A stretch of 31,962 nt of DNA from a virus, in the IMG/VR virus record IMGVR_UViG_3300045988_073522, positions 1 through 31,962 of that record; one strand, 5' to 3'. Below, piece by piece: positions 4,126 to 31,962 of this stretch. The stretch's first letter is position 1. Each line of letters starts with the position of its first letter. The position numbers and the translations under genes were made by a program. Under the pieces are notes generated by a model. That model worked only from the letters and a program-made list of their open reading frames with translations, was not told where the DNA came from and searched no databases.

Positions 4126-4561
4126 TTATAATAGGATCTCCAAATTTAAATTGGCATTCATTATTTTGAATATTAACTTGAATTTCTGGTTGATTTAATC
4201 CAAACATAGAATTTATTGTTTTAATAACCTCAGTAGCAGATCTTACATCATTTTTACTAATAGCAATATCCAACAATGTTTCCAATCTTGTTAATTGTAT
4301 ATGTCTTAAATTCTTTATAAGATTATCGTTTTTATCTGCAATAATCTTATAAGCTTCTCTAATATATTTAGCAGCAGTAGTTTGCCCAACTCCATATTTA
4401 GTTTGAAGTTCCTCACTTACTTTATTTCTGGACCACCCTTTATTAAATAATCTTGCTGCATAAAGATATTTAGTTTTTTGTTCGTCTATTTGATCCTCTT
4501 TTACTTCTTCCTTTTTCGGTCTCCCTATTTTCTTCGGCAGTTCCTGATTCTTTACTTTCAT
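4109..4561 (-). CDS. terS: Putative terminase small subunit (150 aa)
   Basis: Basic N-terminus plus an HTH-like 'GWSRNKVSEELQTKYGVGQTTAAKYIREA'. Lies directly upstream of terL and overlaps it by 17 nt. TAA stop, no TGA. Assigned by position and architecture. Confidence 0.5.
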   Translation of the reverse strand: MKVKNQELPKKIGRPKKEEVKEDQIDEQKTKYLYAARLFNKGWSRNKVSEELQTKYGVGQTTAAKYIREAYKIIADKNDNLIKNLRHIQLTRLETLLDIAISKNDVRSATEVIKTINSMFGLNQPEIQVNIQNNECQFKFGDPIINDKDI

Positions 4562-4805
4562 TTTCCTTTAGTTTTTCTTGATATTCAAAATAGATTGGGG
4601 CAATCCTCTTTATAAGATTAAGTATACAAGTAGCACAAGCTACGCTCATTCTATATTCTTGTTCAATTAAATATTCATAAATCTCTTTAAGCTTAATTAC
4701 ATCCTGCTTTTGTACATTTCTGCAATAATTAGACTTAGTTGCAGTTACAAATCTATCTTCAAATCCTCTTAAATATTTAAACTGCTCTTCTGTTAATTGT
4801 TTCAT
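4470..4805 (-). CDS. Hypothetical protein (111 aa)
   Basis: ATG at 4805, TAA at 4470, no TGA. The last 92 nt overlap the terS start in another frame, so the real C-terminus is uncertain. Confidence 0.5.
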   Translation of the reverse strand: MKQLTEEQFKYLRGFEDRFVTATKSNYCRNVQKQDVIKLKEIYEYLIEQEYRMSVACATCILNLIKRIAPIYFEYQEKLKENESKESGTAEENRETEKGRSKRGSNRRTKN

Positions 4806-5463: not shown

Positions 5464-5755
5464 TTAATCAATCCTCCAATTCGTCATTTTGTTGTTCAAG
5501 TGGTTCTTTAACAATCTCATAATATTTCTTATAGGTATAGTAATATCTACTTGTTTTACTAAACCAATAATTCTTAAATAATCTTGTAATCCAAAATTTC
5601 AATTCATTTTTGCTATCAAGCTGATTTAATTTTGGATTTGAATACTCTAGTATTTCTACAAAAATCATTTGAACACAGTCATCATCTGCACCAAATTTTT
5701 GCTTAAGTTCCATAATAAATGGATAGTACTTTTCTACAATTTCGTTATTACTCAT
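5447..5755 (-). CDS. Sigma-70 region-2-like protein (102 aa, ECF-like)
   Basis: Track ORF 5468..5755 ends at a TGA. Read-through adds WLNETED and then TAA at 5447-5449. 'DDCVQMIFVEIL' and 'LKFWITRLFKNYWF' resemble regions 2.1-2.4. Confidence 0.55.
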
Positions 5756-6242
5756 ATGTTCACATATATCCTCCTGCTGTTTTTCGCTGCCCTTTAAGAA
5801 CCTTTACAATATTTCTAGATTGTATATTTAGTTCTCTCTCAGCATCTATTGCTGAATCCCATCTTTTAATAACTATTCCATTTAGTAATTGCAGTATTGG
5901 TTTCTTATGACTATATCCAGCTCGCAGATTATGAGTTCCATAATTATTATTATAATTATAAGTACACCATTCTAAATTACTTACATTATTATTTGATTTA
6001 TTTTCATCCTTATGATTTATACAAGGATAGTTATTCGGATTAGATATAAAAGTTTCAGCTACTAATCTATGTATATAACACTTCTTTTTCAAATTTTTAT
6101 TATATAATGTTACTGTAAAGTACCCATTAGTTTTTACTTGAGGTTTTAACCTCTTTGGAACTGATGCTCTTAAACTTCATATTGAGCCATCAGTTCCAAT
6201 TTGGTAGTTTTCAAAATTAAGTATTCTTTTATAGGCTATCAT
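5748..6242 (-). CDS. HNH homing endonuclease, copy 1 (164 aa)
   Basis: ATG at 6242 (the track start at 6092 is a TTG). TGAs at 6177 and 5760; TAA at 5748. N-terminal 'FENYQIGTDGSIWS', HNH core 'HRLVAETFISNP..INHKDENKSNNNVSNLEWC', tail 'GGYMWTYE'. Confidence 0.8.
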
Positions 6243-7056: not shown

Positions 7057-7542
7057 ATGATTTACGTAATTAAATTAACTAAAACGAATTTTATTAAAGT
7101 TGGTTACACTACTAATATAAGTGGCAGACTAACTGCTTATAAAAATACTATTCCAAATGAGATGATAGAATTTTTTATAGCAAAAGAAGGAAATAGAGAT
7201 GATGAAAATTATTATAGAGATAAATATAGAGCATATAAAACTAAGAGTAATTCAGAATGGTTAAAACTTCCAGATGAATTAATTGTAGAGCTATTAGCAG
7301 ATTTTAAGAGTGCAAATAATATAAAAATAAATAAACAAAGCAAAAAAGAATGATATAATGAGAATATAGATAAATTAGTAGAATTGTGCTTATCTGGAGT
7401 ATCATTAAATAGAGCTGCAATTCAATTAAATGCACTAAATTGAGACTGAATAAAATATGCTAATCAAAGATACGAAAAAGAGAATGGCAAAAAATTAACA
7501 AAACTTTGGGTAAGAAAAATCAAGAAAAGTTTTGCAGAATAA
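7057..7542 (+). CDS. GIY-YIG-superfamily (T5orf172/MUG113-like) protein with a C-terminal HTH-like tail (161 aa)
   Basis: Track ORF 7057..7353 stops at a TGA. Read-through of TGAs at 7351, 7441 and 7447 gives '...LNWDWIKYANQRYEKENGKKL...' up to TAA at 7540-7542. 'IYVIKL..IKVGYT..R..Y....SEWLKL' fits the family. Confidence 0.6.
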
Positions 7543-7784: not shown

Positions 7785-9506
7785 ATGAAAACATATTTAA
7801 ACAATTTGATTAATGAGTTGCCAACTAACTGTTTATTTGATAAAGGAAAAGTTGGATGTGGAGGAACTTCAATGGCAATTGAATGTAATAAGCCTTATGT
7901 TATTTGTGTTCCATTTACTAGCTTAGTTGAAAATAAACTTCAACAATATCCAAATGAAAGACGTACTGAGAAGATATTTGGAGTTTATGCTGGAGTTACT
8001 ATTAAAGAGATTAAAGATTACGTAGAGAGTGTTAAATGTCCTAAAATTATTGTTACATATAACTCACTTCCAAAAGTTATTTCTGCAGTTAATACTAAAG
8101 AATATAGTTTATTAGTAGATGAATATCATATACTATTTAATCAGTATAGCTTTAGAAAGGATGCTATTAAACCTGTTTTAGAGAACTATGAATTATTTAA
8201 AGATTTTACATTTATGACTGCTACTCCTCTTGAAGAAGAGTTTGTATTAGATGAATTAAAAGATTTAGAATTAGTAAAGCAAGAATGGGATGATGTTATT
8301 GAAACCAAGGTACAAGCCGTTAAATGTAAGAATGTTGAAGCTTCAACTATTAAATTAATTAATGCTGTTCTTAATAATCAAGTCGAAGGTAATGTTTATA
8401 TATTTGTAAATTCTGTAGACTTTATAAAGAATCTTATTCAGAAAGCTAAACTTACAGAAGAGAATACCAGAGTTATATATTCCAAAAACAATAAAACCAA
8501 ATTATCAATTCATAATTCTACAGTATTAGATGAACCTAAGAAAATAAATTTATTAACTTCTACAGTATTTGAAGGTTCTGATATTTATGATGAAAATGGA
8601 AGAATTGTAGTAGTAAGTGATGCTCAAAAAGCACAAACTCTTCTTGACATCTCAACTTCAATCCAACAGATTGCTGGCAGAATTAGAAATAGTAAATATT
8701 TAAACTGGATAACTCATCTTTACTCAGCAACAAGATATGCAGATATTAGTTATGAAGACTTTAAAAAGAAGAATATCCAGAATATTGAGGAAACTAAGAT
8801 TGCTGTAGATGCTTACAATGCAATGCCTGAAGTTGCAAGAAAGAAACTTAAAGAATTTACATCTGATACTTATATCCAAGTAAATGATGATTTTACATTT
8901 ACATTTGATCCAAATATGGCTAAGGTAGATATTTTTAACTTTAAAGTGACAAGAGGTTTATATTCTATTAGAACGAATCTTAATAAAGAATATATAAAGA
9001 ACGGATTTAAAAAAGTAGTAGAATGTGAAGACAACTCTATTAAGATTGATTTTGAATCTGATAATAAACCATTTAAAGAACTAATTAAAGAAGTTAGAAC
9101 AGAATGGGAAAATAAATTTAAACTGAATACTCCACTCTTAAATGATGCTATTATTAAATATCCTTGGTTACCAGAAGCTATTAGTAAATTAGGATTCGAA
9201 AAGATGGCAAGCTTGAAATATTGCATTTCGGATATTAAAGATGCTCTATTAAAGAAATCAAATAAAAGTGCAGATAATAAAGCAGCTAAGAAGTTAAATC
9301 AATCAATTACTCTTGGAATGTGGTATTCTAACGCTGATATTAAAAAGTTTGTTAAAGAAGCTTATGAAATTAGTGATATTACTATTACTCCAAAAGCAAC
9401 AGAAATTGATAAATATTATGAAGTTAAAAAATGCCAGAAAAGAGTAAATGGTAAACAAACTGAAGGTTATGTAATTATTAATAAAAAGTTTGTATTTAAT
9501 AAATAA
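7785..9506 (+). CDS. Superfamily-2 (DExH-type) helicase, 573 aa
   Basis: Intact in the standard code; all 5 Trp are TGG. 'GKVGCGGTS' (Walker A-like), 'LLVDEYH' (DExH), 'FMTATP' (motif III), 'TSTVFEGSDI' (V), 'QQIAGRIRN' (VI). TAA stop. Confidence 0.75.
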   Translation: MKTYLNNLINELPTNCLFDKGKVGCGGTSMAIECNKPYVICVPFTSLVENKLQQYPNERRTEKIFGVYAGVTIKEIKDYVESVKCPKIIVTYNSLPKVISAVNTKEYSLLVDEYHILFNQYSFRKDAIKPVLENYELFKDFTFMTATPLEEEFVLDELKDLELVKQEWDDVIETKVQAVKCKNVEASTIKLINAVLNNQVEGNVYIFVNSVDFIKNLIQKAKLTEENTRVIYSKNNKTKLSIHNSTVLDEPKKINLLTSTVFEGSDIYDENGRIVVVSDAQKAQTLLDISTSIQQIAGRIRNSKYLNWITHLYSATRYADISYEDFKKKNIQNIEETKIAVDAYNAMPEVARKKLKEFTSDTYIQVNDDFTFTFDPNMAKVDIFNFKVTRGLYSIRTNLNKEYIKNGFKKVVECEDNSIKIDFESDNKPFKELIKEVRTEWENKFKLNTPLLNDAIIKYPWLPEAISKLGFEKMASLKYCISDIKDALLKKSNKSADNKAAKKLNQSITLGMWYSNADIKKFVKEAYEISDITITPKATEIDKYYEVKKCQKRVNGKQTEGYVIINKKFVFNK

Positions 9507-9520
9507 AAATATTATATTTG
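9489..9520 (+). promoter_or_regulatory. Bacteroidetes-type promoter: TTTG-N20-TATATTTG, ending 4 nt before the ATG at 9525
   Basis: tttg tatttaataaataaaaatat tatatttg, read directly at the 3' end of the helicase gene. Confidence 0.45.
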
Positions 9521-9524
9521 TGAT

Positions 9525-9686
9525 ATGGAAGGAGATATTAAAGAAACAATTAAACAAACAGAAGAGTATATTAAAGAATTGGATAAATGAATACTTGAGT
9601 GTAAAGAAGCTACTAAAAGATTTGGTGATATTATAGATAAAGTATTAAAAAATAAAGATTATATGTTTATTTCTAAATTTGATTAA
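9525..9686 (+). CDS. Small hypothetical protein (53 aa)
   Basis: ATG at 9525, in-frame TGA at 9588-9590 (...ELDK-W-ILECKEA...), TAA at 9684-9686. Not in the track. Confidence 0.45.
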
Positions 9687-9688
9687 TT

Positions 9689-9829
9689 ATGGATGATTAT
9701 TTATTTAAAAAGCTTGAAGAACTAGAATACAGAATAGTTCAACTAGAAAACCAGAATAGAGGTTTAGTTTGGGAAGAAGTAGAAGAAATGCCAAAACCAG
9801 AAATTCCTAATGTAACATATACTGACTAA
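9689..9829 (+). CDS. Small hypothetical protein (46 aa, coiled-coil-like)
   Basis: ATG at 9689, 2 nt after the previous stop. TAA at 9827-9829. MDDYLFKKLEELEYRIVQLENQNRGLVWEE... Confidence 0.4.
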   Translation: MDDYLFKKLEELEYRIVQLENQNRGLVWEEVEEMPKPEIPNVTYTD

Positions 9830-9830
9830 T

Positions 9831-9974
9831 ATGAAATATCAAACCTATAAAGTATGCATAAATGGAGTGTATTATGTATATGTAATACCAGAAAATAGTA
9901 GGTTTTTAGTGGACTTACAAACAGGAGATTTAATACCTAAAGAAGATGATAAATTATTTGAAATGATGGAATAA
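9831..9974 (+). CDS. Small hypothetical protein (47 aa)
   Basis: ATG at 9831, 1 nt after the previous stop. TAA at 9972-9974. Tight head-to-tail packing with the two preceding small ORFs. Confidence 0.4.
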   Translation: MKYQTYKVCINGVYYVYVIPENSRFLVDLQTGDLIPKEDDKLFEMME

Positions 9975-9980
9975 ATGAAA

Positions 9981-10004
9981 ATAGGAGGGCATAAACCCTC
10001 CTAT
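9981..10004. terminator. Bidirectional stem-loop ATAGGAGGG-N6-CCCTCCTAT between convergent gene blocks
   Basis: Perfect 9-bp stem. Located between the plus-strand stop at 9974 and the minus-strand stop at 10011, with T-rich sequence on both sides. Confidence 0.6.
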
Positions 10005-10010
10005 TTCTGT

Positions 10011-10580
10011 TTAAGCGTATTTTCAAATGTATCCTTTAGATGTTTGCTTTAATCCACTACATACTCTACTAATGGCTCCTCTATCAGTTCCTACTGCATT
10101 AGCCGCTTCAGTACAGCTTTCATATTCCTTAATAAAGTTTCCCTCTAAATCATATTGTAAAACCTTTTTACATCTTTTCTTATTATGAATTTCATTACTA
10201 ATCTTCCAAGGCAAACTATATAAATGTTTCTTACCTTTATTTGATTCTGATAGTTTCTTTCTTCATTCTGTAGAAAATTTTATTCCATAGTTGCCACCTT
10301 CACCTCCTGGCTTCAAGTTTAAACACATTGGATCTACTTCCCATTTATCTCCTATTAATTCATACTCCTTTTTAGATAATTCATCTGAATCATTACAGAA
10401 TGCAATTATTTCTTTTTTATATGCATTAGGAAATCTTTTATAGTAGTTCTTAATAATTTTACCAGAACCTTTATATGGATCTTTATATGGGTCTTTTCCT
10501 TTATAAATACGCTTACCAATGTAATATTTTCCTCTCAATGAGCCAGCAGTTAAATAAATTTTATAACAATAGTAAAACAT
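10011..10580 (-). CDS. GIY-YIG homing endonuclease, copy 1 (189 aa)
   Basis: Track ORFs 10263..10580 and 10023..10214 share a frame. They are joined across TGA 10263 and extended past TGA 10023 to TAA 10011. 'YCYKIYL..GKYYIGKR', NUMOD3-like 'WRKKLSESNKGKKH', C-terminal 'SKGYIWKYA'. Confidence 0.8.
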
Positions 10581-11032
10581 TATATAATTGTAAATTTCTG
10601 TCTTCTCTGCAAACCCTCTTTATTCTTCAGTCCTAAATGAATTCAACTAGCTATTCCATTTCTAGGTTTCTCATAAATAAGTTGATCAAAATCATACTTT
10701 TCAATAGCTTCAGTAATCCAAACCTGAAATTCTTTCATTTGGCCGTTACTTGGAATTATATCTGCTGCATATCCTGTTAGATGGGCAGATGTCAAAGATC
10801 CTCCTACAGCTTTATTAAGCTCATTACATCTATAACCTGAATTCACACTTATTGCTGGATTCCCCAACCGATTAACATCACAATACTCTGCCCAATCACT
10901 TCTTAATGGGTCTAAAAGTTTCTCGACTAACTCTATAAGGTGTTCAGTAATCTCTTTATTTGGAGTATTATCTATCTTCTTAATAGAAGCTGTATCAGAT
11001 CTTGTTAATTCACTAATAGTAAAATATTTCAT
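10580..11032 (-). CDS. Endolysin, zinc peptidase M15 family (150 aa)
   Basis: 'SGYRCNELNKAVGGSLTSAHLTGYAADI' gives the H-x6-D zinc ligands. The track ORF stops at TGA 10643. Read-through gives 'IAS-W-IHLGLKNKEGLQRRQKFTII' up to TAA 10580, supplying the expected C-terminal His. Confidence 0.8.
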
Positions 11033-12276: not shown

Positions 12277-12954
12277 TTACTTACTCTTTTTATTGTTATC
12301 ACTTGAAGGGAAATCATAAGCTCTTTGCAGAGGACCTTCACAAGAATTATATCTCCAACCTTTACCTCTAGCTCCACCTAACCAAATAGTGCAAGATGAA
12401 CTTGAATACATATTTGGATACATATCTTTAAGAGGTTTATAAGAATACAATTCAGGAAAATCATTATAATATGTAATTACCCAATTTTGCAATCTAGTTT
12501 TAAAGAAATCTGCTTTATCTCTATAATACTTCTTAATAAGATTAACTTGATTAATATCAGAAGTTAAATCTTTCTCATCATCAGTCCTCATAACCCCAAA
12601 ATTACTCAGCTTAAATGAGATGGGTATAGTAATCTCACTTAATACTTGATAAAGTAAATAAGGCTGAATATAGTAATCTAGCAATTCTTTATATCTATGA
12701 TTTTCTGGGTCATCTATTGAAGTAGGATCATAAATAGGAGGTTCTATTGGATGAACTGGTTTATTTGGATCTTTTCAATCAATTACTAATTTCTGAATCT
12801 TTTCTAAGAGCTTAGTTCCAATTAATGACTGAAGCTCAATATCTTGTGCAAGTTTAATTGCTGACTGAAGATATTTACCAGAAACATTATTGTCTAAATT
12901 GGATTCTGATTTTATATAATCTTCAGATATTAATAGTACATTTCTATATTCCAT
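12277..12954 (-). CDS. Hypothetical protein (225 aa), possible head-tail connector/head-completion protein
   Basis: ATG at 12954 (the track start at 12684 is a TTG). TGA at 12775-12777; TAA at 12277. 'SGKYLQSAIKLAQDIELQSLIGTKLLEKI' resembles gp6-like connector N-termini; the functional call is weak. Confidence 0.6.
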
Positions 12955-13597
12955 AATAATATTTATAATTTTTGCAGGGTTTATTTTTTCTACAAGATCT
13001 AGATATACTAGAAGAATCTACATTATTCTTCTCTCCAGCTTCCTTAGCTGATTTATACTCACAAATAAAATTACCATCTAAATCATACTTATATACTTTT
13101 TTGCACTGACGTTCTGAAATTAGTTGTTTTTCTTTATCTGAGAGTTTCATACCTTTATTTCAAGGAGTTTTGCCTAATCTTGCCTCCCTCATTTTACGCT
13201 TGCTTTCATCTGAATGCTGTTTACCATAAAATGAGTTATTTTCTCCTGATCTTATAATTCTAAGACTATCTTTATAATCTTGTGAAAAAGAATATCCACA
13301 AGTACCGTCTCCTCCATCAGTTAAATTATACCCATATTTTGGATTTCTAGTATTATACTTATAAATCAGAATCTTTTCTAAAGTCTTAGCACAAGCTTCT
13401 GGAAGATTATCTCTAATTATAATATGCTCAAAATTATCTCAACCATATTTTTTAATTGCTCTGCTAAAATAAAGATTATTCTTGTAACCTTGACCTTTAG
13501 TTCCCCATCTATTATTTAAAGTAAGTGATGTTATTCCAAAATATAATTTATTATCAGCTATATTCTTATGGCAGTACACTGTATAATTATTCAACAT
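12944..13597 (-). CDS. GIY-YIG homing endonuclease, copy 3 (about 217 aa)
   Basis: Only the C-terminal 68 aa are in the track. Upstream read-through of TGAs at 13160 and 13439 gives 'YTVYCHKNIADNKLYFGIT', 'YGWDNFEHIII' and 'YGYNLTDGGDG'. ATG at 13597 (or 13606); TAG at 12944. Confidence 0.75.
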
Positions 13598-14678
13598 TTT
13601 CTGCATTGTCTGACATTCCTTTTGGAGTTAAACTAAATGGTTCAATAGTAATACTATTCTTAATGCCGAAGATTTTATCAAATGAGTCACAAATTTCTGA
13701 TTGTATTGGGCGTACAAAAGTACGATTATATAGCTTAAATGCTTCATTAAACTCATTTTCATTAAATCCTGAGCTATAGTTTAAACCGAACAACGAAGGA
13801 TTAGCTCTGAAGGCACAGAATATTTGATCTCTGGTTCTCTCAGATAATGATTGATATTTCTCATCAAAATCATCAGAATCTAATCTTTCAATAGTAGTCT
13901 TATTTGCCTCATCTGCATTATATGAAATCAATATTCTGCCAGCATTCTGATAACCAGAGAACTTCTCATTAATATTCCTCTCAATCTCCTCTCTAATTTC
14001 ATCTGTAGGTTCCCCATTATTAAAGTTAATAATAAGATTACCCATAAATCCATTATTGATGTTATTTAAATGGAATTCATTAATATTTTTCTCAGTTTCA
14101 CAAGATAAAATAGCAGCTCCATAAACAGGAATAGGATATACTCCTCTTGTTATATAACCTTTATTATAAAATATACTAGCTGGATTTTCATCCCCAGCTC
14201 CAAATTTTGGATATTTTATAGCTTTTACAGACCAAGCTGTCCAATCAGTTGCATAATATAATATATCATTCTTTTCGCTTGACCTTACATTCATAAAATC
14301 AATATGATATATCTCTGCAACTCTTCCGAGCATATCTCTAATTACTTGGATAGCATAACCTCCAAATATCATCTTATCAATAGTGATTTTTCTCATTATA
14401 TCAACTATTGTTTCACCTTTCTTGTTTACAACTACTTCAAATCCTGGAGCATTACATTTAACATCGTTACCAACAATAAAGTCAGCAGAACCATTAATAA
14501 TGGATTGGAGAGTGGCAACATTTAAATATAAATCCCATAGATATAATGGATATTTGTTATCTTCTCCCCACATTACATAATCTTTTCCCCTCACTTTAGT
14601 TTCTGTAGGTAATACGATATTACTTGCAATAAATGGATCAATAGCACTTAACTGAACTTTTGTTTTATTTTCGCTCAT
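13587..14678 (-). CDS. Putative portal protein (363 aa)
   Basis: Intact ORF with all 4 Trp as TGG. N-terminal 'VMWGEDNKYPLYLWDLYLNVATLQSIINGSADFIVGNDV' recalls PBSX/HK97-type portals. Called from motif memory only. Confidence 0.55.
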   Translation of the reverse strand: MSENKTKVQLSAIDPFIASNIVLPTETKVRGKDYVMWGEDNKYPLYLWDLYLNVATLQSIINGSADFIVGNDVKCNAPGFEVVVNKKGETIVDIMRKITIDKMIFGGYAIQVIRDMLGRVAEIYHIDFMNVRSSEKNDILYYATDWTAWSVKAIKYPKFGAGDENPASIFYNKGYITRGVYPIPVYGAAILSCETEKNINEFHLNNINNGFMGNLIINFNNGEPTDEIREEIERNINEKFSGYQNAGRILISYNADEANKTTIERLDSDDFDEKYQSLSERTRDQIFCAFRANPSLFGLNYSSGFNENEFNEAFKLYNRTFVRPIQSEICDSFDKIFGIKNSITIEPFSLTPKGMSDNAENVE

Positions 14679-16234: not shown

Positions 16235-16756
16235 TTAGATATATTTAAATTTTACCCCTTTATAAGTGTCTGTTCTTCCTTTAAGACAATCTATAACTCT
16301 ACTATGAGTATACCCATCTATTGATGTTTCAATTGCATTTTTATATGTTTTAACTAGTAAATCATTAATAAATAGCCCTACAGGTTTACTAATTTTATCA
16401 ATACATCTATTTATTCTAGTTCCATATGTATTATTATACTTTGCATCACATCATTCTAAATTTTCTACCCTATTATCTGTCTTATTTTCATTTATATGGT
16501 TAACATATGGTAGATTGTCAGGATTTGGAATAAATGCTTCTGCTACTAGTCTGTGAACTTTAATAGCTTTAGGTTTATCTAAGCCAGATACTAGAATTAC
16601 ATAATTATAGCCATATTTATCTATATGCGGTTTTAGCTTTTTATGTATTTGTTTTCTGGTTCTTCCAATAGAATCTTTAAAAGTCAATGGGTTACTATAT
16701 ACATCTCCTGTAGAAGATACACTATAGTTAGGATAATTTGTTAATACTCTATTCAT
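16235..16756 (-). CDS. HNH homing endonuclease, copy 2 (173 aa)
   Basis: Start at ATG 16756 ([14 protein letters not shown]...). The track ORF stops at TGA 16451 right after 'RVENLE'. Read-through gives '[11 protein letters not shown]...KGVKFKYI' up to TAA 16235. Core '[25 protein letters not shown]'. Confidence 0.8.
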
Positions 16757-21266: not shown

Positions 21267-21791
21267 TTAAGCACCTACAACGCTTTGGATAGCTTCTGCA
21301 GATAACTCATAAGGATAAGAATCTGAATCTGTTGAAAGTGTCAGAGTATAAGCATTCTGATCACCTTTAGCAGTACCAGTAACACCCGTACCAGCGGAAG
21401 CGCTTACATAATCATCTTTACCTAAGAACCAATACTTACCATTGCTATCTTCAACAACAACTGCAAGCTGACCAATTGATAAAGCTGCAATCTCTACTCG
21501 TTTTGCTGTTTCCATCTTTGTAAATACAAGAGCAAGCTCATTACTTACATAATTAACACCAGCACTTTCATCTACATTTAAAGTTGAGGTTAGAGAACCA
21601 GTAGCCTTTCTAAATTGGTAGTTATACCATTTAGCTGAAGACTCAAGAGTAATAGCTGAAATCATATTGCTCTCAGGATCAACCGTTACACTTTTAACAT
21701 CTGCATACTGGGTAATCCATACCTGTTTGATTCCACCCAATGAAGGTTGGCAATCAAGTGTGATTCCTGCGATAGTTATTAAACAAGCCAT
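21267..21791 (-). CDS. Putative major tail (tube) protein (174 aa)
   Basis: Intact ORF, 3 Trp all TGG, GC-richer than its surroundings. Lies directly after the capsid gene and is followed by a strong terminator. The sequence pattern resembles siphovirus tube proteins. Confidence 0.55.
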   Translation of the reverse strand: MACLITIAGITLDCQPSLGGIKQVWITQYADVKSVTVDPESNMISAITLESSAKWYNYQFRKATGSLTSTLNVDESAGVNYVSNELALVFTKMETAKRVEIAALSIGQLAVVVEDSNGKYWFLGKDDYVSASAGTGVTGTAKGDQNAYTLTLSTDSDSYPYELSAEAIQSVVGA

Positions 21792-21831
21792 AATTTCAAT
21801 ATCATTTAGAAGTTAATAAAATCTATTGAAA

Positions 21832-22737
21832 TTAAGCCTTGGCGCCTAATACTACTTCGTCAGGGAAAGCAACTTGTACACCAGCGTTAAATTCAATAGC
21901 TAATCTGAACTCGCGGAAATCCTGTGAATACCACAATTCGAATTTCTCTTCATCGTTCATCATATCTACACCATAGAAGAAGTTCTTGTCTAACTGACCA
22001 GCAACAATCTTATCAGTTCCATTAAGACCATTAACAGCAATAACCTTAACCTGTGAACCAGGAAGATAAATCTCACCATTAAGGCTCTCTCCGCTATAGT
22101 GGAAATAGTTCTTCTCAACAAGTTCATTTACGAACTTACGGAACATATCGGCACCAACAAGAATCGAAGCACCATCAAGAACCTTCTCAGGAATTGCATT
22201 ATAAACTGCCATAATATCAGTATAGGCAGATTCTCCAGCAATTTCTACATCTACAGTACCATTATCAGCAGCAAGAATCTTAAGCAGACCATCAAAATAC
22301 TTCAAGTTATTAGTTTCTGAAGCCGTATCACCCTGCCAGATAGCTACCTCAATAGCCTCTTTTACGTTCTCTACAACAGCATTTACGAAATCCTCTTCAA
22401 AAGGAAGAGTCTTCTGACCAGCGGCTACCTTAACTGCATACTGAGTCCAGTATTTCAGCATAGCCTTATCGCAATATGCCATATTAATCTTAATATTACC
22501 AGTCTTAAGAATTCTCTGAGAAAGAGTCTGAGTTCCAGCCTCATCCCAACCACAAGTAAGACCATCACCGAACTGAACATCGGTAGATAACAGGTTAAGA
22601 GCAGCATCAGTTTTAATATCTGTCTGAAGATTAAACAAACTTGCACTCTTAGCTTTTAAAACCGCTTCCTTAATAAGAGGGAGACGTCTTTGCTCCACAT
22701 AAGCAGGAAGAGTTGTCATTACAGGACTATTTGCCAT
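21832..22737 (-). CDS. Major capsid protein (301 aa)
   Basis: Intact ORF, 4 Trp all TGG, clearly higher GC. Follows the protease and scaffold-like genes in the canonical order. Confidence 0.7.
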   Translation of the reverse strand: MANSPVMTTLPAYVEQRRLPLIKEAVLKAKSASLFNLQTDIKTDAALNLLSTDVQFGDGLTCGWDEAGTQTLSQRILKTGNIKINMAYCDKAMLKYWTQYAVKVAAGQKTLPFEEDFVNAVVENVKEAIEVAIWQGDTASETNNLKYFDGLLKILAADNGTVDVEIAGESAYTDIMAVYNAIPEKVLDGASILVGADMFRKFVNELVEKNYFHYSGESLNGEIYLPGSQVKVIAVNGLNGTDKIVAGQLDKNFFYGVDMMNDEEKFELWYSQDFREFRLAIEFNAGVQVAFPDEVVLGAKA

Positions 22738-22758
22738 AATTATTTAAAATTTTATAAA

Positions 22759-23373
22759 TTAACCAATAAAGTTTTTAAGCTTTCTATCTATTTCTGCTAT
22801 TCCACTTATAGGAGCAGTTGTTTTATTTTCGAGTGTTTCCTCTGCTGAAAAAGCAGCACTCATCTTACTCATTTTTTCTACAGTCTTTTCAGTAGCTTCT
22901 GACTTTCCTTCAAGTTCTGCTACTTTCTTAACAAGCTTATCTACAATATCATAGAGCTCATTAATTTCGCGATGAATAGCGTCGATTGCATCAGTCTCAG
23001 TTTCTTTAACACCGTCTGTTTCAACAGCAGGATCAGCAACTTCCTCAGCTTTTACTCTCTTAGTTCCACAAGCAGCATCAACCTCAACAGTTCTCATACC
23101 CTCATCTGGATCAACTTCAGCTTTAGGATCAGTAATGGACTCTACTTTACCGTCTTTAACAACAATAGTTTTGCCATCTTCGGTAACATACTCACCATCA
23201 GCAGCAGGTGCATATTCGCCAGTATCAGTATCCATTGTATATACACTCATACCTGCCCTTAGATCCTCATCCTCACTACCATCGTAAGTTAGAACTCCAG
23301 CACTAGTCTTAACATCGTTAAATTTTGCTAAGAGTTTACTAAGTTCGATTCTCAGTTTAGTTAATTTGTTCAT
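22759..23373 (-). CDS. Scaffolding-like acidic coiled-coil protein (204 aa)
   Basis: Very D/E/K-rich with helical N- and C-terminal segments. Located between the protease and the capsid gene. TAA stop. Confidence 0.55.
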   Translation of the reverse strand: MNKLTKLRIELSKLLAKFNDVKTSAGVLTYDGSEDEDLRAGMSVYTMDTDTGEYAPAADGEYVTEDGKTIVVKDGKVESITDPKAEVDPDEGMRTVEVDAACGTKRVKAEEVADPAVETDGVKETETDAIDAIHREINELYDIVDKLVKKVAELEGKSEATEKTVEKMSKMSAAFSAEETLENKTTAPISGIAEIDRKLKNFIG

Positions 23374-23968
23374 ACTTAAATTTAAAATTTTTATGATAGT
23401 TTTGTTTATTTTTGCAACATTTTATAATAGCACTATGATCAAAATTTCCGTTTCTTTCAGCGTCCATAGCAGATTTCCAAGTGCATATATAAGTATCATT
23501 AATATCTGTCATAATTATACGTTTACTTACTTTTTCTTTCTGCTGTTCAGTTTGTTTAGTTCCCAATCTACATTCTCTTAACTTTAATTTTGTTTCATCC
23601 TTTAATACTCTTCCAGACTGTTTTAAAGACATTTTGTGTTTAGATTCTTCACTGTGTTTAAATCCAGTATTAGAACCTCCACCTTCATTTAAATTATAAC
23701 CATTATTTAATGTATCAAATAACTGAATATATTTAATTTCTGCATTATTTAGTTGTCTTTTCAATAATTCTGTAGAAGAACAACAAAAGATTTGAAGAAT
23801 TTCCCATTTAAAGTTATTGAATCCATATTTCCTAATCGCTCTATGAAAATATGTAAGATTAGAACTGTATTTATGTTCATTCTTTCTTCTCAAGAAATTA
23901 TTTGTTTGTCCTACATATTTATTGCCATTTATAAGATTTGTTGCTAGATATATAACTCCACTATACAT
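23357..23968 (-). CDS. GIY-YIG homing endonuclease, copy 2 (203 aa)
   Basis: 'GVIYLATNLINGNKYVGQT', 'RRKNEH', 'YGFNNFKWEIL', 'GYNLNEGGG'. C-terminal module 'ICTWKSAMDAE..SAIIKCCKNKQNYHKNFKFKY'. Inserted between the protease and scaffold genes. Confidence 0.85.
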   Translation of the reverse strand: MYSGVIYLATNLINGNKYVGQTNNFLRRKNEHKYSSNLTYFHRAIRKYGFNNFKWEILQIFCCSSTELLKRQLNNAEIKYIQLFDTLNNGYNLNEGGGSNTGFKHSEESKHKMSLKQSGRVLKDETKLKLRECRLGTKQTEQQKEKVSKRIIMTDINDTYICTWKSAMDAERNGNFDHSAIIKCCKNKQNYHKNFKFKYEQIN

Positions 23969-23969
23969 T

Positions 23970-24560
23970 CTATTTAACTCTTTTTATTTTTCTCAACATT
24001 TTTTGAATCTCTTTAAGTTCCTCATATTCATCAGATTGTCTTTCTAAAGTAAACAATCCCTCAATAGATAACCCTTTAAACTTTCCAGCTTTAATTGCAT
24101 CCCATATAACAGGATTATTTACTTTATAAGTAGCAAATAATGAACCATCTGGACAATCAGCAAATTCAACTGGATTAATTCCTCTATCTATATCTTTAAC
24201 ATATAGTTCTTGAAGAATTATTCCAGGAATTACTGAATCTTCCAAATGTTCAATATTTACATCAGTAGTTCTCTTATCATACATCATTTTTTCAGCCATT
24301 AAACGGAGAGTTTCTTTATCATATTGAATATAATATTCTCCGTTTTTACTATCCCGTCTAAATATAGGTATATCACATACCATTAAACAAGAAGTAACTA
24401 TATGTTTTTCTTCATCCATCGAGAACTTCTGAGATTCCCCAAAAGCAAGCCAATTAACTTGGGTTGCAGGTTTACTGGTCAATGCTACGAACTCTATTCC
24501 ATCACAATCATCAGCAATAATTGCTTGATATAATGGAAGATCATTATACATTTTTTCCAT
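23970..24560 (-). CDS. Putative prohead protease (XkdF-like, 196 aa)
   Basis: Sits upstream of scaffold/capsid. 'HIVTSCLMVCDIPIFRRDSKNGEYYIQYDKETLRLMAEKMM...VNIEH' recalls the XkdF-type family. TAG stop, no TGA. Confidence 0.5.
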   Translation of the reverse strand: MEKMYNDLPLYQAIIADDCDGIEFVALTSKPATQVNWLAFGESQKFSMDEEKHIVTSCLMVCDIPIFRRDSKNGEYYIQYDKETLRLMAEKMMYDKRTTDVNIEHLEDSVIPGIILQELYVKDIDRGINPVEFADCPDGSLFATYKVNNPVIWDAIKAGKFKGLSIEGLFTLERQSDEYEELKEIQKMLRKIKRVK

Positions 24561-30400: not shown

Positions 30401-30793
30401 TTTAAGTCCATAGAAGAAATCTCCTAATCCTCCATATAAAGTAATATTATAAGTAATGACAGCTTGTTTTATAGATATACTATTTAATTGCATATATCCA
30501 GATTCAACTAAATAGTCATTATTATAGATTCCAAAATCAACTCGTTTTGAAGGATCAAAATATACTCCAGAGAAATTACCTTCTTTTATATGGAGAAATC
30601 TATCTAACTTATAAATCTCTCCAAAAATCTTATTATTATTTTTGTCTCCTGGAATGCTTATAGTCTTACTGAATGAATTTTTTACTATTGTTGGATTCTG
30701 AAAATCTTCTACAGTATAAGTCATTGGTAATGATATGCCTTCAGAACAATGTACTTCTTTTCCTGCAATAAATAATTTAATATTTTTACGCAT
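27437..30793 (-). CDS. Large tail/baseplate-associated structural protein (1118 aa)
   Basis: Five track ORFs (30263.., 29927.., 28601.., 27878.., 27437..) and all gaps between them are one frame. Hand translation of every gap found only TGA: 30263, 29927, 29912, 29318, 28940, 28601, 28448, 28280, 28202, 27878, 27866. ATG at 30793; TAA at 27437. Confidence 0.75.
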
Positions 30794-31265
30794 ATTTTCA
30801 AATATATCCTTTATGTTGTGAAATATTACCAATACAACACTGTCCTATATTTTGGGGAACAAACCCATATTTTTTAGTATCAGCAATTGAATTTCATCTC
30901 TTTATAAAAGTGCCATCTAAGCTTTCCTGTATTACAGGTTTTTTATTATTATTTAATCTATTTCCATAAGTAACATTATATTGAGCTGTACATCATTCTA
31001 AATTATCAACCCTATTATCCTCCTTTATCTCATTTATATGATTTACTTGTGGTAAGTTTTCTACGTTTGGAATAAACGCTTCTGCAACTAATCTATGAAT
31101 ATTGAATCACTTGCCAGACTTATTCTTTCACAATTGAACTTTTGTATATCCAGCTGGAGTATATCCACTCTTCAGTTCTTTATTGTTTTTTATAGAGAAG
31201 ACTTTACCAGTATTACTTATCTGGTAAAGTCCCTCATATCCTTTAATGTCTTTATATACTTCCAT
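30786..31265 (-). CDS. HNH homing endonuclease, copy 3 (159 aa)
   Basis: Absent from the track because of 5 in-frame TGAs. ATG at 31265: '[24 protein letters not shown]', '[37 protein letters not shown]', ending 'HKGYIWKYA'. TAA at 30786. Confidence 0.8.
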
Positions 31266-31267
31266 AA

Positions 31268-31962
31268 TTATTTACGATAAGTATCTTGAGAAGCTTCTAC
31301 ATTAATTGTATAATAGAACTTGTTTTTACCTTGATTAGTATAAGTTTTATATTCACAATTTGTATCTGTAATCAATACTGGAGTGATAGTATTATCTTTA
31401 AGATTATGCAAATATACTTTAGTACTCTCAATTAGATTAAACATCTTAGAAGCTTGAATATCATTTAAATAACCAGTATAAAGAACCCAGCTTGAAGTTA
31501 TAGTATTCAAATACTTATTTCTTGCAAACTCTTGTGATGTATTTAATACCTTACGAGTATATGTTTCAGATTTAATCTCATCATTCTTTTTAACATTACC
31601 CTCAACAAGTAATGAATCTCATCCACCTGCTGAATTAGTATAATACAACACATAATCTTTACCTGTAGTATCTATATCATATCTAATCTGTCTATCACTA
31701 ATATTTCCACCTTCTACAAATCCTACTATTAAATAGCTTCCACAAGACCATAATTTATTACTTAAATCTTCTGTATATGTATATCCATTAATTCCAGAAT
31801 TTAAACTAATATCCATAGCAGATTGTACTCCATCTATATAAAAGAATCTATTAATAACTCCAGTTCCAGTTGGTAGAATTCAACTTGATACTAAATACTG
31901 CCTTGGATCAACTAAACCAGTAATAGGATCACTTAACATAGTGCCTTTAGTTAGATCTCTAT
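31268..31962 (-). CDS. Virion structural protein of the tail/baseplate module; N-terminus lies beyond the window end
   Basis: Track ORFs 31619..31816 and 31268..31510 are one frame, joined by TGA 31619. The frame stays open past TGA 31880 to the window edge. TAA at 31268. Confidence 0.65.

Follow-up and report, generated by a model that had tools for sequence, protein, structure and literature searches.

Conserved tryptophan positions in homing endonuclease genes support TGA-to-tryptophan recoding in a 32-kb human-gut phage genome

Gut phages in which TGA is recoded to tryptophan (Trp, W; genetic code 4) have been described (Borges et al. 2021/2022, bioRxiv 10.1101/2021.08.26.457843), among them the small clades Garnet and Amethyst (~34 kb) and Topaz (~22 kb). 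Published lineages of gut phages combine codes 11, 15 and 4, their hosts being believed to use the standard code, and a suppressor transfer RNA (tRNA) with anticodon UCA is not universal, being present in 35% of reported code-4 phages (15% in PMC11210395). Here we analyse positions 1 to 31,962 of IMG/VR virus record IMGVR_UViG_3300045988_073522 (the window, that is, the whole 31,962-nucleotide stretch), the ~32 kb genome of an uncultured human-gut tailed phage with 29% guanine plus cytosine (GC) and nearly all genes on the minus strand. We focus on its three HNH endonuclease genes (HNH1-3), whose conserved Trp positions are TGG in some copies and TGA in others. Because TGA-to-Trp recoding in gut phages is already established, the window is an instance of a known phenomenon, and a public protein collection already holds proteins of this phage translated with W (P0001).

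Likened by traits rather than by placement in a tree, the window has gut origin, low GC and TGA read as Trp in common with the Borges clades; as in those clades, its lineage includes near relatives with the standard code or with TAG recoding, TGA is a rare stop in the former, recoding is spread unevenly over genes and a suppressor tRNA is mostly undetectable. It differs in that its TGA-free genes include the late, highly expressed capsid module and not replication genes alone, and in that regulatory-looking genes carry TGA, so that a simple "early = standard, late = recoded" split fails. The Mycoplasma phages MAV1 and P1 likewise combine in-frame TGA as Trp with the lack of a phage tRNA and a GC content of 27-29%, but TGA makes up 77% and 95% of their Trp codons, respectively, and is at least as frequent as TGG in every Trp-containing gene, whereas it accounts for 43% in the window, with gene-specific avoidance; moreover, their records list no cell-wall hydrolase among the annotated products, whereas the window encodes a Peptidase_M15_3 protein. 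Code-25 phages of Absconditabacteria and Gracilibacteria resemble the window in their in-frame TGA, low GC and human-associated microbiome, but read TGA as glycine (Gly), whereas the TGA sites of the window align to Trp and other aromatic residues. As for the endonucleases, I-HmuI of Bacillus phage SPO1 (PDB 1U3E) is built like HNH3, with a NUMOD4-like N-terminus, an HNH(N) core containing NL.W and a C-terminal helix-turn-helix (HTH) module that ends in G-Y-x-aromatic-x-Y; it lies within a group I intron of a DNA polymerase gene, whereas the HNH copies of the window, putative nicking enzymes, are free-standing between genes.

Translation, together with codon-aware alignment in MAFFT, was used to verify every coordinate and codon. 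The three HNH genes align as described in an earlier note made without database searches, across a conserved motif that holds in all copies except that HNH3 has NV, rather than the proposed NP, in "FI.NP". The codons reported there are also as observed (Table 1): the Trp of NLEWC is TGG in HNH1 and TGA in the other two copies, and that of IKRW is TGG in HNH1 and TGA in HNH3, with TAT in HNH2. The plus-strand string acaccattctaaatt, from the NLEWC region of HNH1, is unique in the window (5964-5978). HNH3 and GIY1, a GIY-YIG-like gene, both end in GYIWKYA followed by a stop, written GGA TAT ATT TGA AAA TAT GCG in the former and GGA TAC ATT TGA AAA TAC GCT in the latter (TGA at 10023-10025), so that three synonymous differences surround a common TGA. 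The list of TGA codons given for the HNH genes was correct but incomplete, as together they hold eight rather than four, including 6177-6179 in HNH1 and 31107-31109 and 31128-31130 in HNH3. When the six related C-terminal modules of HNH1-3 and GIY1-3 are aligned in that order, the first Trp column reads W (TGG), tyrosine (Y), TGA, Y, Y and W (TGG), and the second reads TGA, phenylalanine (F), TGA, TGA, Y and F. Eight of the ten residues that face a TGA in the three-way HNH alignment are W, Y or F, against an aromatic background of 11.5% (binomial p ~1e-6). Since the HNH copies are mutually 38-43% identical at the protein level, they are old, independent sequences and not the outcome of a recent duplication.

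A search of 5.8 billion proteins was made with HNH3, its five TGA codons being written as X to prevent a bias towards W. Among 118 homologues, defined as the matches not near-identical to HNH3, the NLEWC column holds W in 105 cases, Y in 8 and F in 5 (89% W), the IKRW column W in 95, Y in 20 and F in 3 (81% W), and the GYIWKY column W in 117 and F in one (99% W); the other two TGA columns of HNH3 are variable, one being mostly Y. In the I-HmuI sequence, W occupies the NLEW column, and Y and F the IKRW and C-terminal columns. The same picture emerges over the genome from standard-code relatives, compared by means of a query in which TGA and TGG alike were masked: W is the most frequent residue at 12 of 37 TGA sites and at 13 of 45 TGG sites, so that TGA sites behave like Trp sites; in the 1118-amino-acid (aa) tail protein, TGA sites 618 and 864 face W in 7 of 9 and 9 of 11 such relatives. 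In close relatives, window TGA codons are matched by TGA 441 times, by TGG 125 times and by TAT 35 times, and window TGG codons by TGA 75 times. On this comparative evidence, the homologue columns, the standard-code relatives and the exchange between TGA and TGG support and, in our view, settle the reading of TGA as Trp put forward in the note, termination, Gly, selenocysteine (Sec) and sequencing error being excluded for practical purposes. As the window uses code 4, the alternation of TGA and TGG at conserved HNH Trp positions is ordinary synonymous variation, and comparing codons between such gene copies is a valid database-free route to calling a reassignment.

The gene model agrees with this assignment. 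When TGA is treated as sense, open reading frames (ORFs) that reach 100 aa add up to 12956 aa instead of 9021 aa, and the longest of them grows from 639 to 1135 aa; treating TAG as sense brings little gain. The model contains 56 in-frame TGA codons, distributed over 23 of the 32 Trp-containing genes, and 73 TGG codons; its genes tile without fusions at 93% coding density and terminate in TAA (29) or TAG (6), the zero count of TGA terminators being a consistency check, as the model takes TGA as sense beforehand. Annotation hence requires translation table 4, with table 11 breaking most long genes, including those for the tail, the terminase and all homing endonucleases. The end-to-start junction of the window aligns contiguously with three related contigs (L002, L006 and L009; 96-99% identity over 3 kb), which makes the window a complete, circularly permuted genome. 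As a whole, it very probably represents a complete, circularly permuted tailed-phage genome that uses code 4. What TGA means, that the genome is complete, that the endonuclease genes are mobile and that no tRNA is encoded by the phage are shown here; conditional or limiting decoding of TGA is inferred and favoured by a modest margin.

The idea of limiting decoding stems from the uneven use of TGA. Across relatives, tail, fibre and endonuclease genes use TGA for 40-100% of Trp codons, and the putative major capsid protein gene, its neighbour, the scaffold-like gene and a 573-aa plus-strand gene use almost none (Table 1); in the window alone, genes grouped post hoc give TGA/TGG counts of 0/22 versus 56/51 (Fisher p = 1e-6). 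This pattern points to selection that keeps TGA out of genes expressed early or at a high level, presumably including the capsid genes and the 573-aa gene.

How TGA is decoded has to be explained without a phage tRNA, as ARAGORN, including low-threshold rescans, identified none in the window or, across 157 loci (2.46 Mb), in any relative that is TGA-recoded; its two calls among these loci fall in L142 and L152, neither of which is TGA-recoded. No tRNA-Sec was found in the window, and Rfam gave no credible match there but two weak chance matches to small nucleolar RNAs, far below the gathering score. Two leads were discarded: of the 8-83 low-threshold ARAGORN calls, two have a TCA anticodon, but both of these are AT-rich pseudo-structures (7% GC, broken stems), and an Rfam rescan of 9450-10060 for a suppressor tRNA at E up to 10 returned noise only. 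The Pfam scan covered 36 of the 37 modelled proteins that reach 78 aa (all but ORF 4470-4805, which is doubtful and overlaps others) and detected no domain of a release factor, tRNA synthetase or integrase. Decoding would require a UGA-reading tRNA-Trp together with little or no action of release factor 2 (RF2) at UGA; because the phage encodes neither element, the infected cell would have to supply them. Recoding without a phage tRNA could, for example, involve a block of RF2 and the reading of UGA by the host tRNA-Trp, possibly one with a 4-bp anticodon stem, and a bacterial tRNA-Trp(CCA) with such a stem that is able to read UGA has been described. Given the avoidance of TGA in the capsid and 573-aa genes and its free exchange with TGG elsewhere, we lean, by a modest margin, towards limiting or conditional decoding, the situation supposed for those recoded gut phages whose hosts are believed to use the standard code, and less towards a natively code-4 host.

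The latter alternative may nevertheless hold: the phage would simply mirror a host that lacks RF2 and has either tRNA-Trp(UCA) or a UGA-reading tRNA-Trp(CCA), and nothing phage-specific would be needed. This fits the absence of any tRNA, release factor or tryptophanyl-tRNA synthetase gene from the genome and from about 2.4 Mb of related loci, as well as the spread of TGA over 23 genes from every functional class, one tail gene alone holding 11; furthermore, gut bacteria that have a wall, are low in GC and natively use code 4 have been described (Equivita and Gorillivita of the Eggerthellaceae, 31-40% GC; PMC13462651), and many predicted code-4 phages may only share the code of their host (Cook et al., PMC11210395). 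On the other hand, these Eggerthellaceae were not from humans, TGA provides just 43% of the Trp codons at 29% GC compared with 77-95% in equally GC-poor phages whose hosts truly use code 4, and it is nearly absent from capsid genes clade-wide despite exchanging freely with TGG elsewhere. The nearest relatives are, moreover, standard-code, and one is TAG-recoded with its own suppressor tRNA. The Peptidase_M15_3 candidate endolysin would imply a host with peptidoglycan, which argues against the wall-less Mycoplasmatales. A further, combined proposal is less likely than not: an abundant clade of ~30 kb phages with no tRNA, release factor or synthetase of its own and with TGA-poor capsid genes would infect either a so far unrecognised walled human-gut bacterium that natively reads UGA as Trp, or a standard-code host recoded without a phage tRNA.

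Several points weigh against the reading preferred here, namely code 4 with conditional or limiting decoding. The evidence for Trp is wholly comparative, and many database homologues may themselves stem from code-4 contigs, a bias mitigated by the standard-code loci and I-HmuI. As to limiting decoding, a global permutation test for heterogeneity in the window alone reaches p=0.04 only, the capsid-gene grouping was chosen post hoc, and the TGA/TGG counts over relatives are phylogenetically non-independent. As to a standard-code host, the 23 TGA-carrying genes include those for the sigma/HTH protein and T5orf172, an essential tail gene with 11 TGA codons would need efficient decoding, and a suppressor tRNA is absent from about 100 related contigs. 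Finally, two scans of GTDB species genomes with the terminase and a capsid profile revealed no prophage of the recoded clade. Among host clues that were rejected, the GTDB matches of the capsid profile are standard-code relatives only (33-54% identity), most of them lying on phage-sized contigs that were binned into unrelated metagenome-assembled genomes (Faecalimonas, Bacteroidaceae, Methanosphaera and others), so that the bins are untrustworthy as host labels. A megablast of 12 kb against the cultured phages of INPHARED produced no match, and the terminase is less than 30% identical to that of any INPHARED phage, leaving no cultured relative there and no host clue.

The remaining alternatives concern the meaning of the codon itself. 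Reading TGA as Gly would suit the low GC of the genome and the occurrence of code-25 phages in human microbiomes, but is effectively refuted: Gly is missing from the three conserved HNH columns in all 118 homologues, in standard-code relatives it is the most frequent residue at only 2 of the 37 TGA sites against 12 for W, and TGA exchanges with TGG (200 cases) and TAT, GGN codons opposite window TGA codons being essentially absent in close relatives. Genuine termination, whether in pseudogenes and gene fragments or with rescue by rare readthrough or Sec, is equally remote. The ORFs are indeed fragmented under code 11, as in decaying mobile-element genes, and a public member of the HNH3 cluster is shortened; yet the 56 in-frame TGA codons occur also in essential genes (terminase, tail, endolysin), the reading frame is kept on both sides of every one of them, amino-acid conservation runs across TGA with 441 sites conserved in relatives, and the high coding density, the lack of TGA terminators and the agreement of dozens of independent assemblies all speak for sense codons; Sec sites, in addition to lacking a tRNA-Sec, would align to cysteine and not to Trp. 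A spurious conversion of TGG to TGA by sequencing or assembly error, with nothing in its favour but the single base that separates the codons, is refuted by the same TGA codons in many independently assembled contigs (IMG/VR, ENA, Logan).

By sequence, HNH1-3 appear to be free-standing HNH homing endonucleases of the I-HmuI type. HNH_3 scores above the cut-off in all three copies, while NUMOD4 passes in HNH3 alone and falls short in the other two; among the three, only HNH1 matches the I-HmuI NUMOD-like domain. HNH3 matches 1U3E end to end (residues 4-158, 9.5e-23) and has a predicted architecture of NUMOD4, HNH_3 and a C-terminal NUMOD-like DNA-binding module, a NUMOD-type module common to the three HNH and three GIY genes. 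GIY2 and GIY3 match Pfam GIY-YIG, like free-standing endonucleases of the Seg / I-TevI type; NUMOD1 is found in GIY1 and GIY2, and NUMOD3 gives a clear match in GIY2 and a partial one in GIY3. Unlike that type, GIY1, which the note had called GIY-YIG copy 1, does have the GYIWKYA end attributed to it but no Pfam GIY-YIG match at E<0.01, its matches being NUMOD1 and the I-HmuI NUMOD-like domain.

Five of the six endonuclease genes, all three GIY genes among them, vary in presence between near-identical genomes, as does the T5orf172 gene, the absences being mostly clean and flanked by intact sequence; the flanks of HNH2 are covered by no relative locus. HNH1 is present in some relatives and cleanly absent from others, HNH3 is missing from many near-identical genomes, and GIY3 from L022. 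The insertion point of HNH3 is exactly the ATG of the 1118-aa tail gene. In genomes that lack it, the stop of the upstream gene is followed by TT and then by the tail-gene start ATG AGA AAG AAT (junction sequence ...CGTAAATAATTATGAGAAAGAATATT...); in the window, the ATG of HNH3 takes the position of the tail-gene ATG and the tail gene restarts as ATG CGT AAA AAT over the last codons of HNH3, its first codons beside HNH3 thus being recoded from AGA AAG to CGT AAA. Presence/absence combined with exact insertion is a signature of free-standing homing endonuclease genes. The term "paralogues" used in the note is accordingly apt insofar as the HNH genes are homologous, but the comparison of sequences presents them as independent mobile insertions adapted to, or circulating in, a code-4 gene pool rather than as simple in-genome duplicates. 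The HNH3 protein cluster is found on >350 contigs; one of its members, P0242 (115 aa, JGI/IMG), is a shortened public gene call such as standard-code calling would yield.

Table 1. Features of the window, with Trp codon usage (TGA/TGG) in the window and summed over relative loci, and the codon or residue at conserved Trp positions of the endonuclease genes
Feature	Position	Strand	Profile matches (Pfam)	TGA/TGG, window	TGA/TGG, relative loci	NLEWC Trp	IKRW Trp (first C-terminal column)	GY.W.Y Trp (second C-terminal column)	Remarks
HNH1	5748..6242	-	I-HmuI_NUMOD-like 6e-8, HNH_3 1.6e-5			TGG 5967-5969	TGG 5859-5861	TGA 5760-5762 (GYMWTYE)	
HNH2	16235..16756	-	HNH_3 5.7e-8	single TGA, at NLEWC Trp		TGA 16451-16453	TAT	TTT	
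HNH3	30786..31265	-	NUMOD4 4e-11, HNH_3 3.5e-10	5/0	65/0	TGA 30993-30995	TGA 30894-30896	TGA 30798-30800	
GIY1, GIY-YIG-like with NUMOD1 C-terminal module	10011..10580	-	NUMOD1 3e-10				Y	TGA 10023-10025	in L009, L010 and L017; elsewhere absent, flanks intact
GIY2, GIY-YIG/NUMOD3/NUMOD1	12944..13606	-					Y	Y	
GIY3, GIY-YIG	23357..23968	-	GIY-YIG 3e-8	0/2			TGG	F	within head module
T5orf172 gene	7057-7542								presence varies among near-identical relatives
Tail protein, 1118 aa	27437..30793	-		11 TGA	298/282				most-recoded single gene; start codon overlaps HNH3 end
Tail fibre					36/2				
Putative major capsid protein	21832..22737	-		0/4	1/263 (66 loci)				
Capsid neighbour	21267-21791				3/196				
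Scaffold-like protein					0/44				
Gene without assigned function, 573 aa	7785..9506	+		0/5	1/159 (34 loci)				possibly early or replication-related
Peptidase_M15_3 cell-wall hydrolase, candidate endolysin	10580..11032	-	PF08291 3e-14	1 TGA					

Recognisable genes of the window include those for a large terminase, a portal, an XkdF-type prohead protease, a fibre with a tail-tip domain and the Peptidase_M15_3 wall hydrolase; the sigma/HTH protein and T5orf172 genes are regulatory-looking. The major capsid protein carries its label on account of gene order, following the prohead protease (Peptidase_S78_2) and an acidic scaffold-like protein, and of the source annotation of the 92%-identical P0132 (DAV62050.1), "MAG TPA: Major capsid protein [Caudoviricetes sp.]" in NCBI nr; Pfam and PHROGs returned no function or only families of unknown function for it, and a profile search of PDB sequences gave chance matches only. 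Neither Pfam nor PHROGs matched the 573-aa protein. Regions 21267-24560, 13587-14678 and 7785-9506 are free of TGA; the head module (putative capsid, scaffold-like protein, protease and GIY3) and the 573-aa gene together have 0 TGA and 16 TGG codons, and the portal gene has 0 and 4.

Relatives of the phage are abundant. Dozens of IMG/VR contigs, 29-32 kb long, are relatives at 57-100% protein identity; most belong to dataset 3300045988, which according to one paper was co-assembled from human faecal samples. With hundreds of member sequences in its capsid protein cluster, the lineage is very common among human-gut phages. Relatives at a greater distance (about 30-49% identity, GC 28-63%) lack in-frame TGA and hence use the standard code. 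The recoded clade is nested among standard-code and TAG-recoded relatives, and its recoding arose inside a standard-code lineage. One standard-code relative, L061 (IMGVR_UViG_3300029905_000019; about 30 kb, 28% GC), has 0 in-frame TGA in 3882 aligned residues and ends only 2 of 27 genes with TGA, a rarity that fits the proposed route in which a rare stop is depleted before reassignment. Another relative, L142 (JAEEVN010000017.1, binned as "Bacillales bacterium"; ~43% identity, 30% GC), has in-frame TAG in its portal gene (4) and connector homologues (3 and 1) and none in its capsid gene, and encodes a tRNA with a CTA anticodon (8781-8868); it thus belongs to the same broader lineage and is TAG-recoded, with an amber suppressor tRNA of its own. 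With recoding in gut phages already known, the residual interest of the window lies in the lack of a phage tRNA, the avoidance of TGA in capsid genes and the question of the host: being common, nested among other codes, without detectable decoding functions of its own and with TGA-poor capsid genes, the lineage offers a useful compact model (~32 kb) for how recoded phages without their own suppressor tRNA get translated, and in which hosts.

The 148 kb IMG/VR contig IMGVR_UViG_3300045988_175865 (L117/L134, contig positions ~99.8-148.6 kb, with L126-L139), in which a relative might have been taken for a prophage in host DNA, was rejected, since the relative is joined to a ~168 kb phage family by only ~6 nucleotides of overlap and the contig is most likely an assembly chimera without host information. 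That family, from the same faecal dataset, is TGA-recoded too, with 5-10 TGA codons per tail-fibre gene, and its fibre genes have only one domain in common with that of the relative (37-39% identity).

Where the ends of the window meet (31940-31962 joined to 1-10), ~7 nucleotides are apparently lost relative to L002, L006 and L009, as in a linearised circular assembly; as an artefact of this loss, a 728-aa gene that forms a single ORF in L022 (7812-9998) appears in two pieces, 31268-31939 and 1-1479. The seeming gap of ~500 nucleotides at 9507-10010 contains three plus-strand ORFs of ~46-53 aa, the first with an in-frame TGA, and a strong terminator-like hairpin, AGGAGGG...CCCTCCT, lies at 9983-10002, where the plus- and minus-strand gene blocks converge.

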